Positions 13,428-54,614 of a DNA stretch of 64,000 bases are shown piece after piece. The notes below the pieces were generated by a model, which was given only the letters and a program-made list of their open reading frames with translations, was not told where the DNA came from and made no database searches. The translations under genes and the position numbers were made by a program. Each line of letters begins with the position of its first letter. The stretch's first letter is position 1. Source of the stretch: Octopus sinensis (Eukaryota); NCBI RefSeq assembly GCF_006345805.1, contig NC_042997.1, forward strand, positions 152,706,001 to 152,770,000, given 5' to 3'.

Positions 13428-13830
13428 ATATTCTTTTCTACTCTAGGCACAAGGCCCGAACCTTTGGGGAAGGGGGCCAGTCGATTAGATCGATCCCAGT
13501 ACGCAACTGGTACTTAATCTATCGACCCCGAAAGGATGAAAGACAAAGTTAACCTCGGTGGAATTTGTACCCAGAACGTCAAGACAGACGAAATACCTAT
13601 TTGTTTACTACCCACAAGGGGCTAAACACAGAGAGCACAAACAAGGACAGACAAACGGATTAAGTCTATTATATCGACCCCAGTGCGTAACTGGTACTTA
13701 TTTAATCGACCCCGAAAGGATGAAAGGCAAAGTCGACCTCGGCGGAATTTGAACTCAGAACGTACTGGCAGACGAAATGCCGCTAAGCATTTCGCCCGTC
13801 GTGCTAACGTTTCTGCCAGCTCGCCGCCTT
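13428..13830 (-). mobile_element. Nin/Deu-core tRNA SINE, dimeric composite
   Basis: Head GGCGAGCTGGCAGAAACGTTAGC at the 13830 end; two cores (G)CCTTTCATCCTTTCGGGGTCGAT..AAGTACCAG; two different tails. Confidence 0.85.
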
Positions 13831-18612: not shown

Positions 18613-18613
<1 letters not shown>

Positions 18614-18677
<64 letters not shown>

Positions 18678-18698
18678 CGATAGATAAATAGATAGATA
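18614..18698 (+). repeat. (GATA)n microsatellite
   Basis: Direct reading; abuts the 3' end of the Tx1-like element. Confidence 0.95.
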
Positions 18699-18700
18699 AA

Positions 18701-19430
18701 TTTCTTTATTAGCCACATAGGGCCGAACACAGAGGGGACAAAATAGAATGTAGAGCTTTTCTTTTCGAAAATAGAAAAAAAGGAGAAAAATACAATTTCG
18801 ATCAAAAATGATCGTGTATCACAGAAAAATTTTTAAAGTGTAAAAAGCAAGATTAGATTTATCCGAGGAAAGAAAAGCCTACGGAAAAAAACAAGGTAGC
18901 CTCAGGCAGGGAGGGAATAAAAACATAAGATCAAAGTGCTCTCTCTCACTCTCTTTTTTCGATTTATAGTATCATGCTCAAAGTCATTTCATCACTCACT
19001 CTTTGCTACATTCACCTACCTTTTATTGAAACTTTCACGAGACAAAACTTTACATGATAGACTCGGCCGACAGTCAGACTTGTCCCATACGTGACAGCAG
19101 CCGTTCGACATAAGCCCACAGGTCCGAAACGGCTGGACACTGCACGGGTGTGTGCAGAACCGTATCGTCGCTCTGACCGCATCTCGGGCAAGTCAGTCCA
19201 GTGTGTCTCGAACCGTGCCTGTAGAGCTTATCCCGAACGGGTAATGCTTCTCGATAGCATTGCCAGGCCAGGGATCTCTGGTGATTGTCCATAGGTCACG
19301 GCCCGAAAGTTGTCCTGAACAGGCGGGTCAGGTGTCCCTCGTCGACACCCAGATTCTGCCCGAGAACGACGTCGCACCACACCTCCAAAAATCCTGTATA
19401 GAACACCTTTGTGGAAAAATTAATCACCTC
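18701..19430 (-). mobile_element. 5'-truncated L1/Tx1-like LINE (zf-RVT region and 3'UTR)
   Basis: QRSLAWQCYREALPVRDKL..TCPRCGQSDDTVLH..CPAVSDLW is a zf-RVT CCHC pattern; ends AATAAAGAAA followed by (TCTA)n. Confidence 0.8.
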
Positions 19431-20472: not shown

Positions 20473-20882
20473 CACGACAAAAGTAGCAGCAACAGTAGCA
20501 GTGCTGATGTTTGCACTGCTTTTAATGCTAAGCCATATACCCCTTCAGAACTAAATGGATTCGACCGTTGCGACTGAAGTGTCTTGGTTTCATCAGGTTG
20601 TGAGTGACATGGACATGAATGAGCCAAATGTCTCTCAGCAAGATATCTGTTCATTATTGAATCAGCCGTTAAATTTCCCAGATAAAAATATATTGATCTT
20701 AATTAGAGCTGTGTACACAAAGATATTATCGATTTTTTCCTTTCGAGATGAAATATCTGAAAAGCAAAACTCAAACATATGAATTCAAATTGTAACTTAA
20801 AGAGAAGTTTCAGAAAAACAGCGGTTCATAGCAGGATGAAGGTAGTTGTGATTTGGCTATTATCATTATTATTATTGAAAAC

Positions 20883-22055
20883 GGCACGCTGGCAGAATCG
20901 TTAGCACGCCGGGCGAAATGCTTAGCGGTATTTCGCCTGCGTTACGTTGTGAGTTCAAATTCCGCCGAGGTCGACTTTGCCTTTCATCCTTTCGGGGTCG
21001 ATAAATTAAGTACCAGTTACGCACTGGGGTCGATGTAATCGACCTAATACCTATGTCTGTCCTTGTTTGTCCCCTCTATGTTTAGCCCCTTGTGGGTAGT
21101 AAAGAAATAGGTATTTCGCCTGCTCTTACGTTCTGAGTTCAAATTCCGCCGAGGTCGACTTTGCCTTTCATCCTTTCAGGGTAGATTAGATAAGTACCAG
21201 TTACGCACTGGAGTCAATATAATCGACTTAATCCGTTTGTCTGTCTTTGATTGTCCTCTTTGTGTTTAGCCCCTTTGTGGGTAGTAAATAAATAAGTATT
21301 TCTTCTGCCGCTACGTTCTGAGCTCAAATTCCGCCGAGGTCGACTTTGCTTTTCATCCTTTCGGGGTCGATTAAATAAGTACCAGTTACGCACTGGAGTC
21401 GATATAATCGACTTAATCCGTTTGTCCATCCTTGTTTGTCCTCTCTGTGTTTAGCTCTTTGTGGGTAGTAAAGAAATAGGTATTCTCTCCTTGATACCAT
21501 CTGAGTTTAAATTTCGCCGAGGTCGACTTTGCTTTTCGTCCTTTTTGGCTCTATCAATTAAATACCAGTTACGTACTCGGGTCTATCTAATCGGCTGGCC
21601 CTCTCCCCACAAATTTCAGGTTTTTCGCCTATAGTAGAAAGGATTGTTATTATTGAAGGCTGTGAGCTGGCAGAAACGTTAGCACACCGGGCGAAATGCC
21701 TTGCGGTATTTCGTTTGCCGCTATGTTCTGAGTTCAAATTACGCCGAGGTCGACTTTGCCTTTCATCCTTTCAGGATGGATTAAATAAGTACCAGATTCG
21801 CACTGAGGTCGATATAATCGACTTAATCCGTTTGTCTATCTTTGTTCGTCCCCTCTGTACTTAGACCCTTGTGGGTAGTAAAGAAATAGGTATTTCGCCC
21901 GCGTTACGTTTTGAGTTCAAATTCCGCCGAGGTCGACTTTGCCTTTCATCCTTTAGGGGTCGACTGATTAAGTTCTAGTTGCGTACTGGGGTCGATCTAA
22001 TCGGCTAGCCCTTTTACCCCAAAATTTTCAAGGCCTTGCGCCTAGAGTAGAAATA
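20883..22055 (+). mobile_element. Array of Nin/Deu-core SINE units (one tetramer plus one dimer)
   Basis: Heads at about 20883 and 21658; six units of about 180 bp with GAGGTCGACTTTGCCTTTCATCCTTTC core; junctions at about 21110, 21296, 21479 and 21889. Confidence 0.9.
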
Positions 22056-39802: not shown

Positions 39803-39816
39803 AGCAATACATTATA

Positions 39817-40042
39817 CGGCGAGCTGGCAGAATCGTTAGCACGCCAGGCAAAATGCTTAACCGTATTTCGTCTGCCGTTACTTTTTGAGTTCAAATTCCG
39901 CCGAGGTCGACTTGGCCTTTCATCCTTTCGGGGTCAATTAAATAAGTACCAGCTACGCACTGGGTCGATGTAATCGACTTAGTCCCTTTGTCTGTCCTTG
40001 TTTGTCCCCATTATGTTTAGTCCCTTGTGGGCAATAAAGAAT
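39817..40042 (+). mobile_element. Full-length Nin/Deu SINE monomer with Tx1-like tail
   Basis: Head, core and tail TTGTCCCC..TTGTGGGCAATAAAGAA. Confidence 0.88.
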
Positions 40043-40924
40043 TATATATGTTATTTTTTAAAGTAAATAATATGCAATTCGCAGTACTTTGGTACACTAA
40101 AGCTGGCAAGCTGTCACGGTCTGTATCACTAACTCCTTACCTTTAGAGTCGAACCATTTCAACCATTCGACTTGTAGCCTCCACCAAAACTTCAAACCTT
40201 GTACATATAGTAGAAAGGATTATTTTTAGCCCATTAGATCAGCAACCTGACGAAATACTGTAACTGTTACGCTTGATAACGTTCTGAATTCACATCCTTA
40301 TGGAGGTCTAATTTGAATTTCTCCTCTGTGAATATAAAATAAATACCAGCCAAGTCATTTTCATTGATTGTAAACCTTTCTTAAATTGTTGACTTTCTGC
40401 CAAATTCAGAAACCAGTTTTATTGTCCATATAAGCCACTATGAATCAGAATTAACATTACAATAATCCGTGTGAGTAGTGAAAGGATATTAGTGATAAGG
40501 TCCGTATTTCGGTATAGCACATGTGATATGTAATGAATGATATTCAATGAAGTGAGCTTATAATCAACCACAAAGTATAATGATCACAGATGATTACAAT
40601 CTCTTCCAAACTTTCATACTTCCCCTGACTCATTCACTCTTCCTTATCTTCTATAGTGTTGCTGTAGCTAGCAGAGAGAAACAGGTGAGAAAGCTGTAGG
40701 AAATGTACGATGGAAGTAATATATGTAGACTAAACGTATAAACGAATGCAATTCAAACAACAATAGGTCTTTGTTCGGGGTTCTTGCTTCTAGCAGAGAT
40801 TAGCCAATTAACGGTTCCATACGAACATCATCGACACACGAAGCTAACGATAATCATCACCACTACCATGACAGGGACTCTCACCCTCATACGATAAGCA
40901 TTACCCTCAACAACGCTAATTTAT

Positions 40925-42907: not shown

Positions 42908-45900
42908 TCACATCGACAATGCTCTTCTCAATACGTGTGATGTACCAGTTAAGACAATCTTTTGCACTTCTTGCAGGGATGGTAAGCCAGGGATCATTCT
43001 CATATAATTTTCGGTTCCCTTCTTGATCATTCCTAGTGCTCCTACGATCACTGGTATTGTAACCGCCTTGAGATGCCACATTTTCTCAATTTCAATGAGT
43101 AGGTCTTTATATTTTCTGAGCTTGTCAAACTCTTTCGCTGAGATATTATGATCACAGGGGATGCTCATGTCGATCAATAAGCAAACTTTATTGTTTTGGT
43201 CTTTCACAACAATATCTGGTTTATTGGCCTTGATGGTTCGGTCTGTATGTACTGGAAAGTCCCACAGAATGGTTACATTTTCTCCTTCAGTTACAGCCTC
43301 AGGGTGGTGATTATACCACTTGTCGGCAGTTTTGATATTGTAATGCCGACTTATTAGCCAGTGGAGATATTGGCCAACTCTGTCATGTCTTAATTTATAC
43401 TCCACTGGTGCTAAGACTTTACATCCAGAGATTAGGTGGTCCACTGTTTCAATTATGTCGTTGCAGAATCGGCATTTTGGGTCAGCTCCATTTTTCATCA
43501 CATTGGCCTGGTAGTTCCGGGTTGATAGGCTTTGGTCTTGAGCAGCCAGGATGAAACCTTCGCTCTCTGCTTTTAGCCCTGAGCTCCGCAGCCACTGATG
43601 GGTTTGCTTCTGGTCAACATCAGCTTGTTTGCTGCGGGTCACATATTTGCCGTGCAGAGGTTTCTCCTCCCACCTATCAGCCAATTGCTCGTGCGCTTTT
43701 TTCATTGCCATCATTTTCACCTTCTTTGCAACAATAGTTGCCGTACTTCCCTCGGGTTGTTCAGTTTGGGTATCCTGCACGAGATCAATAGCAAATTTTT
43801 TGCTTTCCTTGATGATAGAATGAAGCTTCTTTCGTCTCTCGTGATTTTCCACGAGCTTTAGCATCCAGTCATTCGATATTTCGAGATATTTGGCCAGTCC
43901 AATTGTGGTTGTTTTGTAAGCTAGTTCAAATTGGATCAGGCCTCGACCTCCTTGGGCTCTGGGAAGGTAAAGGCGATCTACGTCTGCCTTTGGGTGGTGC
44001 ATCCTATTACAACTCAGCAGCTTGCGTATTTTTCTATCCATATTCTTTACTTCAATCATATTCCAGTTCAACACATTGTAGCTATAAGTAACACCTGGAA
44101 CTGCTAGGGAATTTATAGCTAACACCTTGTTACGTGCATTTAGTTCAGATTTCAGGACTGCACGAACTCTCCTATAACATTCCTTCCTGATTTTCTCTTT
44201 CATGCTTGCATGCTGAATACCAGAGCCTTCATTTATCCCTAAATATTTGTATGTTTGTTCTTGCTCAAGCTCTCTTATGACTGTGTCAACATCTAACACG
44301 ACTGAATTTGTGGTCTTCATTTTCCCTTTCTGGAAAGTGGCCTTGGCACACTTCTCAAGTCCAAACTCCATCCCGATGTCATCGCTGAATGATTTCACGG
44401 TGCGCAATAGGCCTTCAAGTTCATTATTGTCTTTACTATAAAGTTTTAAGTCATCCATATAAAATAGATGGCTTATTTTTTTATTGGCAATTTTATACCC
44501 ATACCTTATTCTGTTTAATTCACTTGTAAGGGGTATTAGGGCTATGCAGAATATTAAAGGTGAAAGTGAGTCACCTTGAAAAATTCCACAGTTGATGTTT
44601 ATATTTTCTGAGGCAAGTACTCCATTAGAGTGGTATAATTGGAGATTCGTATTCCACAACGACATATTGTGCTTCAGGAAGTTTGAAATCACAGGGGAAA
44701 TTTTGAAGATGTCCAGCGATCTCAAGATCCATGGATGCGGTATACTGTCGAAGGCTTTTTTATAGTCAATCCATGCGGTGCTGAGATTTCTGCGCTTGTT
44801 GTGACAGTTCTCAAGGATCATACGATTGATTAGCAGTTGATCTTTGCATCCGTAAGAGCCTCGGCGGCACCCTTTTTGTTCAATGGGGAAAATATCGTTC
44901 TTCTCCATGAATGCATATGTTTTCTCCGCCAGGATAGATGTTAGAATTTTATACGTGGTGGATAGACAGGTTATAGGCCGATAGTTTTTTGGAAGGTTGG
45001 TTTCGTTATTCTTTGGGAGTAGGTAAGTAATGCCACTTGCTAACCATTCAGGTGTTTTCTTTGGGTCTCTCATAATTCCATTGAGCAGCAGAACTAGCTT
45101 ACCGTGTGCGCACGGGAGCGATGCGAGCCAGAAATTCGGCACCCTATCTTTACCGGGGGATTTCCAATTATGGGCCTTCGTGAGTGCCTTTCTTAGGTCT
45201 GCTATTGTGATGTCTTCCCATGCTTGTTGTAAATTTTGGTAGGATCCTTCAGTTTGTATAATCCAGTCTGCATTTATGTTGTACGTCTTCTTGTCACTCC
45301 AAATCCTTTTCCAAAAGTTTTGAACTTCTTCCATGGGAGGGGGGTCTTTAACGGTTACTTTCTCCTTCCCTATTTCTTTGTAGAATTTTTTGGCATTGGA
45401 TGTGAACAGCTTATTTTGCTTGTAAAACTTGTTTCTCTTCTCAAATCTTCGTATTCTTTGGGCTTTTGCTTGGACTTTTTGTTTCAGCGTTTCTTTTATT
45501 GATATCAGTTCTTCTCTTGGTGAGGATCCAAATTTTCTCTTCATCTTTCTTCCTGTTCTGGATCTTACATCATTTCCACATATTAGTTCATTTAATATTG
45601 ATATTTCCCCTCTCATAAATTCAATCTCTTTTTCAATTTTACTTCTCCAGGTTTGATTTCTTCCCAGGTTTTGTTTTCTTTGTTTTTTCGGGGGCATACA
45701 GCTGGTTTCAATTGCCCTAGCAGAAGCGTAAATAATTTCATTTAACTCAGTAAAATCAGGTTTTAATTCTCGTATTATTTCATTTGTTACATAGTTGCCA
45801 ATTTGGATTTGTTTTTTATTTTGGTTTGTATTTGAGAGTTTATGAAGCGGTTCTCTATCATTCATACTTGTATGTCTTACAACTTCAAGCGTATTCAGGA

Positions 45901-46228
45901 TTTTCTGCCTCATTTCTGCTATAGACTCTCTGTGTTCTTCAGCAAATGCGAGATCTTCAGTTACTGTTGTTTTTTCGTTTTCCTGGCTATCTTTAACAGG
46001 TACAATAGAATTTCTTGTATCTTCAGGCCTTTGCGTACTTTGGTCAGATGGCAGTCTTTCAATTAAGCCTCGTGGCGGGCTATACTGTTCATCTGATTCT
46101 TCATTTCCTTTGTGTCTTATATTTATGTCATTTTCCGTTGCGTGCTTGATCGCGCTTATTTCACTGTCTGTGAGTCTGTTATTTCTAAAGATATCCCTCC
46201 TCACATTTGCTAATTTGTTCTCGTCCAA
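42908..46228 (-). CDS. Reverse transcriptase with CCHC zinc knuckle and restriction-like endonuclease (main open part of the R4/Dong ORF)
   Basis: WKSPGKD, NYRPITCL, WIDYKKAFDS, GIFQGDSLSP, FYMDDLKL, YKYLG, CRFC..ETVDHLISGC, RHD, KPDIVV..IDMSIP..KYKDL; the TTG start is artificial. Confidence 0.93.
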   Translation of the reverse strand: MDENKLANVRRDIFRNNRLTDSEISAIKHATENDINIRHKGNEESDEQYSPPRGLIERLPSDQSTQRPEDTRNSIVPVKDSQENEKTTVTEDLAFAEEHRESIAEMRQKILNTLEVVRHTSMNDREPLHKLSNTNQNKKQIQIGNYVTNEIIRELKPDFTELNEIIYASARAIETSCMPPKKQRKQNLGRNQTWRSKIEKEIEFMRGEISILNELICGNDVRSRTGRKMKRKFGSSPREELISIKETLKQKVQAKAQRIRRFEKRNKFYKQNKLFTSNAKKFYKEIGKEKVTVKDPPPMEEVQNFWKRIWSDKKTYNINADWIIQTEGSYQNLQQAWEDITIADLRKALTKAHNWKSPGKDRVPNFWLASLPCAHGKLVLLLNGIMRDPKKTPEWLASGITYLLPKNNETNLPKNYRPITCLSTTYKILTSILAEKTYAFMEKNDIFPIEQKGCRRGSYGCKDQLLINRMILENCHNKRRNLSTAWIDYKKAFDSIPHPWILRSLDIFKISPVISNFLKHNMSLWNTNLQLYHSNGVLASENININCGIFQGDSLSPLIFCIALIPLTSELNRIRYGYKIANKKISHLFYMDDLKLYSKDNNELEGLLRTVKSFSDDIGMEFGLEKCAKATFQKGKMKTTNSVVLDVDTVIRELEQEQTYKYLGINEGSGIQHASMKEKIRKECYRRVRAVLKSELNARNKVLAINSLAVPGVTYSYNVLNWNMIEVKNMDRKIRKLLSCNRMHHPKADVDRLYLPRAQGGRGLIQFELAYKTTTIGLAKYLEISNDWMLKLVENHERRKKLHSIIKESKKFAIDLVQDTQTEQPEGSTATIVAKKVKMMAMKKAHEQLADRWEEKPLHGKYVTRSKQADVDQKQTHQWLRSSGLKAESEGFILAAQDQSLSTRNYQANVMKNGADPKCRFCNDIIETVDHLISGCKVLAPVEYKLRHDRVGQYLHWLISRHYNIKTADKWYNHHPEAVTEGENVTILWDFPVHTDRTIKANKPDIVVKDQNNKVCLLIDMSIPCDHNISAKEFDKLRKYKDLLIEIEKMWHLKAVTIPVIVGALGMIKKGTENYMRMIPGLPSLQEVQKIVLTGTSHVLRRALSM

Positions 46229-46593
46229 ATAGGGCCTACTGTCTTGATTCCGTGTTCTCTATATACTGTAAGAGTTTGCGGTGTGTCTCTCTTGAGATGG
46301 CCTACCTAATGCATGTAATAAGCGTATATTACTTCTTTATACTCTTCTCGGGTCCATTTGTTCCGCTTACATTTTTCTTTCTGTGGTGGTTGTGGTGGTG
46401 AACTTGGAGGGCTCGAGTTGGGGGATTTCCCGTTCAAGTGACCATCCATGTCCGTATTCGGAGAAGAGTTTGTGCCAGTTGATGACTTTTCGATCCCAGG
46501 CTGGCTCTGCCCTGGGGGACGCGCTTCCAGATTAACCATAGGACAAGCGATTTGGTATACTGATTTAGTTTTCCTTTTAGTTTCCAAAAACAT
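46229..46593 (-). pseudogene. Disrupted N-terminus of the same ORF (Myb-like motif)
   Basis: ATG at 46593, KRNKWTREEYKEVIYAYY; frameshift at about 46313 and in-frame TAG at 46259-46261. Confidence 0.85.
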
Positions 46594-51902: not shown

Positions 51903-52143
51903 AATTTCTTTACTACCCACACGGGGCTAAACACAGAGGAGACAAACGAGGACAGACAAACGGCTTAAGTCGGTTATATCGACCCCAGTGCGTAACTGGT
52001 ACTTATTTATCGACCCCGAAAGGATGAAAGACAAAGTCGACCTCGGCGGAATTTGACTCAGAACGTAACGGCAGATGAAATACGGCTACGCATTTCGCCC
52101 GGCGTGCTAAAGTTTCTGCCAGCTCGCCGCCTTCCAATATATA
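51903..52143 (-). mobile_element. Full-length Nin/Deu SINE with Tx1-like tail, flanked by (TA)n
   Basis: Head at about 52143, core at about 52012-52040, tail ..GTGGGTAGTAAAGAAA. Confidence 0.9.
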
Positions 52144-54395: not shown

Positions 54396-54609
54396 ATGGC
54401 AGAAACGTTAGCACGCCGGGCGAAATGCGTAGCCGTATTTCGTCTGTCGTTACGTTCTCAGTTCAAATTCCGCCGAGGTCGGCTTTGCCTTTCCTTCTTT
54501 TCGGGGTCGATTAAGGACCATTTTCCAACTGGGGTCGATGTAATCGACTTAATCCCTTTGTCTGTCCTTGTTTGTCCCCTCTATGTTTAGGCCTTTGTGG
54601 GTAGTGAAG

Positions 54610-54614
<5 letters not shown>
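54396..54614 (+). mobile_element. Nin/Deu SINE with Tx1-like tail, flanked by (TA)n
   Basis: TGGCAGAAACGTTAGCACGCC..GTCCCCTCTATGTTTAG..GTGGGTAGTGAAGAAA. Confidence 0.88.

Follow-up and report, generated by a model that had tools for sequence, protein, structure and literature searches.

A 42-nt 3' end that a LINE and a SINE share in a 64,000-nt stretch of the Octopus sinensis genome (contig NC_042997.1, positions 152,706,001 to 152,770,000 of the forward strand; hereafter the window) terminates the members of a whole radiation of Tx1-like LINE families. We consider it likely that the SINE took its tail from this radiation, and that it is copied by the clade containing families C and F and not by family A, to which the LINE of the window belongs. 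A further proposal, to which we assign slightly less than an even chance, is that the partnership forms a closed loop, in which a Tx1-like lineage copies the tail-carrying SINE and lands only in the promoter region of that same SINE.

Shared tails are a standard sign of a SINE/LINE partnership. In the window, the LINE 3' end (18742-18701, minus strand) aligned without gaps to a SINE tail (21066-21107, plus strand) with 35 of 42 positions identical (blastn E value 1.6e-7), and upstream of both 42-mers the similarity between LINE and SINE collapsed, so that the first-pass annotation was confirmed on both points. In 300 shuffles of the LINE 42-mer, at best 24.0 positions on average and never more than 27 could be matched anywhere in the window, while six other SINE tails in the window matched it at 31-35 of 42 positions and one at 26. 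Family A was then sampled by a genome search yielding 4,950 first-look candidates; 40 of these were scored, and sequence was retrieved for 29 other loci. Of these 29 copies, 27 ended in the same tail with TATC-type repeats behind it (26 by pattern, L006 by eye), and L005 and L027 lacked it. The 42-mer was thus a genuine LINE 3' end as first supposed, and an independent SINE fragment at this position, the contrary case named in the annotation, was ruled out. SINE tails are indeed very common, with 85,399 exact genome matches to a 27-base tail-A pattern, and one might invoke the insertion of a truncated SINE tail behind a single LINE copy, or plain chance; nevertheless, the recurrence of the tail in 27 of 29 copies with family-specific letters, together with the ceiling of 27/42 among shuffles, renders this explanation practically negligible.

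The family A copy in the window (18701-19412, minus strand) is 5'-truncated and decayed, with about 188 nt absent near 19050, and it matched young family A copies at about 90% over 19053-19412 and at 72-76% over its 3' part. The segment at 19053-19412 (minus strand) was recognized by translation as an ORF2 remnant carrying a zf-RVT zinc-binding motif, and aligned by tblastn to residues 944-1066 of P0002 (78%). The shared tail itself (18701-18742, minus strand) comprises a pyrimidine stretch, a 4-bp hairpin, and a AATAAAGAAA end. Outside the tail lies a (TATC)n microsatellite (18613-18698, minus strand), a repeat that also occurred at 7 of 11 examined 5' junctions of family A, the remaining four being internal breaks. 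Since (TATC)n stands on both sides of the copies, it represents the target, and its interpretation as a tail repeat was ruled out.

In 20 long fetches, the family A element measured approximately 6.1 kb and encoded ORF1 and an ORF2 with endonuclease, reverse transcriptase (RT), and zf-RVT domains, young copies being 98-99% alike. Pfam identified PF03372, PF00078, and PF13966 in ORF2 of families A, F, and C; this order of N-terminal APE endonuclease, RT, and C-terminal zinc-binding domain is the Tx1-type ORF2 plan, and the best PDB match of the LINE ORF2 was human L1 ORF2p. An ORF1 with a CCHC zinc knuckle is a feature of the Tx1 clade. The knuckle (PF00098) was found in ORF1 of family F, whereas a Pfam search of family A ORF1 gave no knuckle match and the motif was visible there by eye only. 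Preference for a target sequence, likewise a Tx1 feature, was displayed by family A for (TATC)n and by family F for the SINE head. The best-ranked named relative carries the automatic label 'Transposon TX1 149 kDa protein'. Judged from domain order, target preference, and this automatic name, with a tree free of curated Tx1 references, family A is best described as Tx1-like, in line with the original assignment.

The SINE is approximately 230 nt long; its tRNA-like head is followed by a body and by one of the tails A, B1, or B2. It is short, interspersed, and present in high copy, it contains no ORF, and it is flanked by target duplications, which accompanied 20 of the 41 tail-A-ended elements examined, compared with 3.6% of mismatched-flank controls. 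A- and B-box-like motifs were recognized in the head by eye, although ARAGORN and Rfam gave no tRNA match, and an Rfam search with the SINE returned no match at all. Directly after the head follows a UCON3-like body of about 50 nt, which in the window (20969-21015, plus strand) was identical to UCON3_CM at 38 of 47 positions by hand count against the published alignment (PMC7245038, supplement Fig. S2). In contrast, comparison by eye with the mollusc Nin sequences printed in the supplement of PMC4758252 revealed only a short gapped motif in common, and the Meta/MESC body showed no match by eye. The 'Nin-core' label of the first-pass annotation is therefore probably wrong and UCON3 probably applies instead, as judged by eye and from mollusc Nin sequences only.

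Both single and joined SINE units were present in the window. The first unit of the multimer that carries the original match (20878-21109, plus strand, 5' end approximate) has a tRNA-like head, the body, and tail A (42-mer at 21066-21107), and its head includes, between the A- and B-box-like motifs, the site at which family F or tail A is joined in other copies (20927-20942, plus strand; hereafter the head site). Three headless units beginning at the head site follow (21110-21643, plus strand, end approximate), two with tail A and the last with tail B1. Two dimers, each with tail A and then tail B1, were located at 21655-22053 (plus strand) and, within an outer target duplication, at 13433-13830 (minus strand), the ends of both being approximate. 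Tail-A monomers were found within (TA)n at 51903-52142 (minus strand, 5' end approximate) and 54397-54614 (plus strand), and at 39816-40044 (plus strand).

A zf-RVT genome search, in which 150 of 24,041 candidates were scored and 30 fetched, and follow-up searches that added families, revealed the shared tail at copy ends of families B, C, D, F, G, I, J, K, and L besides A, with the same end architecture kept in all sampled families. For each tail, the identity to 79 SINE tails was averaged over the terminal 28, 44, or 64 nt. Over 28 nt, family C was closest (25.5-26.5), followed by G (22.8), I (22.7), F (22.1), the window copy (21.0), young family A (20.0), and D (18). Over 44 nt, the values were 38 for C, 36.1 for I, 35.8 for the window copy, and 33.5 for F, and over 64 nt family D was best (49.4/64), by virtue of the upstream tail segment. 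By these identities the SINE tail appears to be a mosaic of D-like and C-like parts. A genome search for a LINE combining the D-like upstream part with the C-like hairpin gave five matches, all of them SINEs with internal duplications; since the upstream segment is closest to D, the donor may have been a family that has died out or escaped sampling. In an RT tree of 41 rows, whose relatives are unnamed and which holds no curated Tx1L, Keno, Kibi, or Koshi rows, 19 rows from this genome grouped with one database protein (99/97), families C, F, G, I, J, and K formed one clade (100/99), and A and L formed another (100/99).

Family F was shown to insert in the SINE head. Its tail gave 139 exact genome matches, and the first 30 by position comprised 29 LINE copies and one SINE with an F-like tail. 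All 29 copies ran into the SINE body at the one head site, and in 20 of 20 long fetches the front of a SINE head lay upstream, with a duplication of 14-16 nt. The elements in these fetches were about 5.35 kb, with an ORF1 of 520 aa and an ORF2 of 1134 aa where open. The LINE parts were 99.5-99.8% alike, whereas the host SINE halves were 89% and 92% alike; the insertions were therefore independent, and mobility of F and its SINE halves as one unit was ruled out because the hosts differ far more than the LINE. The hosts at the 30 loci were tail-A SINEs in 21 cases by pattern and about three more by eye, with three true B1 hosts; compared with these 21 of 30, the tail-A share of bodies in a random sample was 19/66. 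All 20 long-fetched copies (L376-L395) were full length, which is unusual for LINEs, in a set biased by selection on an 800-base match to a query that included SINE sequence. The junction letter of F was C or G and, by eye, matched the upstream head in 20 of 20 copies; as proof of a target-derived duplication this concordance is weakened, because it is only among the youngest F copies that G occurs.

The same head site receives SINEs. The 393 distinct bodies from all fetched loci, for which F loci had been fetched on purpose, were preceded at the head site by the SINE head (201), by tail A (105), by the F tail (47), or by other sequence (40, about a quarter of which is tail A by eye), and never by tail B. 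Conversely, a sample of 111 tail-A ends, drawn from position-ordered and random loci, continued into the SINE body at the head site in 43 cases, into (TA)n in 13, into (TATC)n in one, and into other sequence in 54. Plain junctions between tail A and the SINE body carried G in 78 of 97 cases and never C, and two insertions (L253 and L075) contained at the junction an extra GG that was absent from the target copy, pointing to templating by RNA. Two further arrangements were observed: four loci (L080, L173, L338, and L373) in which tail-A SINEs joined the opposite strand of another SINE body at a GGTACTT site, and four (L111, L169, L180, and L295) in which one tail-A variant was followed by a SINE from its A-box-like motif, a second preferred site.

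In 13 tail-B-ended multimers, the distance from the tail-A majority was 0.038 for the first body, 0.100 for the head, and 0.142 for the last body; the first body is thus young and the last old. The multimers might alternatively descend from a small number of dimer source genes or have arisen by local duplication, with the junction recalling one old nested insertion and the targeting of the SINE by F a separate matter. Such an origin would agree with the near-constant junction letters, with the search for an upstream head remnant that found none in any of 15 multimers, with the single outer duplications around some dimers, and with an array in which 8-10 units recur about every 186 nt (L435, G000:C1:8969300-8972800). 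However, the last units differ among themselves and belong to the old subfamilies B1 and B2 while the first units are young, and three nested cases, the only clear ones, retain both remnant and duplication. We regard this origin as rather unlikely, and it would in any case leave the shared tail intact.

As to which LINE mobilizes the SINE, the first-pass annotation had named the family of the window. In favor of that family stand the 35/42 identity, the 44-nt comparison, in which the window copy (35.8) is near C (38) and above F (33.5), its abundance (4,950 first-look candidates) and young copies (98-99% alike), and some SINEs with (TATC)n on both sides. Its insertion-site preference nevertheless did not agree with that of the SINE. 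While TATC-type repeats followed 27 of 29 family A copies, (TATC)3 followed only 89 of 85,399 SINE tails, against approximately 160 expected from the background in 400 kb of evenly placed genome sample, that is, at chance level. About 39% of the tails are internal units; even so, no (TATC)3 enrichment was present after SINE tails. In addition, the hairpin of family A differs in register and loop, young A copies share only 20 of the 28 terminal bases, a weaker match than that of C, and sister family F shares the SINE landing site. The proposal was thus not upheld, and family A is very unlikely to be the partner.

Members of the C/F clade are the likely mobilizers because F sits at the head site, tail-A units join SINEs at that same site, and the C tail is the closest. 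Several observations stand against this assignment. None of the families recovered combines the tail of the SINE with its target: C is closest in the tail but showed no head-site insertion (its pattern gave 42 exact matches with mixed flanks, and none of 30 loci checked by eye ran into the SINE body at the head site), and F occupies the site but shares only 22 of the 28 terminal bases. Moreover, F is rare, with its 139 exact tails, and very young, whereas tail-A SINEs are 4-6% diverged, so that present-day F cannot have made most of them. A single mechanism is also opposed by the junction letters, which are mostly G and never C for the SINE and C or G for F, and by the 15 multimers, in all of which the upstream head remnant was missing.

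Alternatively, the SINE could be promiscuous, with its tail a clade-wide signal read by many Tx1-like copiers and its sites determined chiefly by base pairing between its read-through RNA and the target. This is a real, though doubtful, possibility. The single end architecture of all sampled families, the mixed targets (head site 43, (TA)n 13, other 54, and TATC 1 of 111), the extra GG in L253 and L075, and the mosaic of D-like and C-like parts all fit it. On the other hand, the absent (TATC)n enrichment suggests that the abundant family A contributes little, and the use of the strict head site by F and tail A, and not by tail B, points to one machinery.

A mechanism by which the C/F clade would act on the SINE can be proposed. 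Most probably, a template switch involving a C/F-clade element would have supplied the SINE with its tail, as in established SINE biology (PMC4824008). The ORF2 protein would bind this tail and begin target-primed reverse transcription there. RNA extending beyond the tail, into the site where the element had landed before, could then pair with the nicked target and steer the insertion, which would account for the constant junction as well as for the extra bases at two insertions. Read-through RNA has its precedent in the R1 and R2 elements. Finally, through the homology of donor and host heads, the 5' end could be sealed with no remnant left behind, which would produce arrays of headless units.

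The tail was also assessed for a shared stem-loop. In most families a hairpin of 4-5 bp lies 10-12 nt short of the end, with stems differing between families and with a register and loop in family A unlike those of the SINE. The fold z-scores ranged from +0.8 to -1.6, with 8-48% of shuffles scoring equally well (one of the six folds, L205, being off-register). No covariation term was found in the tail alignments, in which one row each was mis-cut (L296 and L290), and the stems were conserved no better than neighboring positions. The stem-loop whose search had been proposed at the outset thus appeared as a short hairpin in most families, but folded no better than shuffles. Recognition of the tail by the partner may be stringent; the 42-nt end kept across all families may instead serve polyadenylation or RNA stability.

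The first-pass view that a stringent-type SINE partnership with an L1/Tx1 element is less common agreed with the literature, in that three SINEs with L1-clade tails appear among 58 pairs, all in plants and a green alga in the available parts of those surveys (Ohshima, PMC3472496, PMC3747384). The pairs ZmSINE2/3-LINE1-1_ZM and SINEX-3_CR-L1-1_CR resemble the present one in sharing a 3' end of about 45-50 nt with a hairpin and in their L1-clade partners, but differ in having a compensated hairpin, which is weak here, and, as far as those accounts extend, in lacking target specificity. The crocodilian SINEU is tied to Tx1-Mar by a common target, with no LINE carrying the SINEU-1 3' end found in the consulted portion of the report (Kojima 2015, PMC4494074). 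That system is similar in the link of a SINE to Tx1 through the target, in the tandem SINE insertion at one site, and in Tx1 families that target other repeats and microsatellites; however, SINEU has snRNA heads and poly(A), and its target is Mariner and not the SINE itself. Family A, microsatellite-flanked on both sides and found in tandem stacks, is comparable to Kibi in (TC)n, Koshi in (TTC)n, and the crocodilian Tx1 in (TTCC)n or (TTTC)n (PMC4494074), but its target is (TATC)n, and the likeness is one of target type.

The SINE shares a tRNA-like head, a UCON3-like body, and exchangeable tails with the UCON3-domain SINEs (Kojima 2020, PMC7245038), which, by contrast, were described from Chordata, Nematoda, Cnidaria, and Xenacoelomorpha with RTE- or CR1-type tails; the available part of that paper contains no mollusc UCON3 SINE and no Tx1 tail. 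Alu likewise has a single-base hotspot for its own kind (Levy et al., PMC2836564), although this is a statistical hotspot within a relaxed L1 system, and human L1 is not confined to it, unlike F with 29 of 29 copies at the site. A search of the open full-text literature found neither an animal Tx1/SINE shared tail nor a SINE-targeting LINE. An animal Tx1-like tail-sharing SINE is thus unusual in the literature searched, and prior annotation in Repbase, Dfam, or SINEBase (OK/OR1/OR2) is possible.

A tail-sharing SINE present in at least 85,000 copies alongside an animal Tx1-like clade would mean that specific recognition of the 3' end reaches this branch too, and would bear on whether the relaxed poly(A) recognition of L1 is derived. 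One tail combined with different targets among sister families (microsatellites, possibly U1, and the SINE head) offers a means of studying tail recognition apart from target choice, and young open-frame copies of the sister families exist. The SINE-targeting family F would offer a mechanism for the SINE arrays that fill the genome, whose repeat content points to a likely octopus host (compare PMC13282606 and PMC8967140). If the closed loop is true, the SINE multiplies the targets of the LINE while a SINE promoter is interrupted each time the LINE inserts, head-to-tail arrays grow from SINE-into-SINE events, and the pair is the first of the shared-tail, stringent type for animal Tx1.

Several other Tx1-like arrangements were encountered. 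Family L (L309, G000:C5 near 65684000) ends in a hairpin with a CTTGT loop and then (ATT)n, and (ATT)n also follows 17 of 34 tail-B1/B2 SINE ends, for example at window 21600-21650; this family is a candidate partner of the older SINE subfamilies with tail B1/B2. At one locus, a Tx1-like copy stands directly before a full U1 snRNA (L221:2200-2391; G000:C15 near 29053160), possibly representing a U1-targeting family. A young Tx1-like family (L222-L227 and L229, 98-99% alike) has identical downstream sequence in 7 of 7 loci, for which L222 gave no Rfam match; a fixed target and a tandem head are both candidates. Tx1-like copies also lie head to tail at 3.6-5.7 kb spacing (G000:C9:76607599-76623724 and G000:C3:72501693-72528860).

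The window contains another reverse transcriptase, an open frame of 1116 aa (42908-46258, minus strand) followed by a (TAA)n end. A restriction-like endonuclease motif was visible in it by eye, Pfam giving RVT_1 only, and we take this element to be Dong/R4-like.
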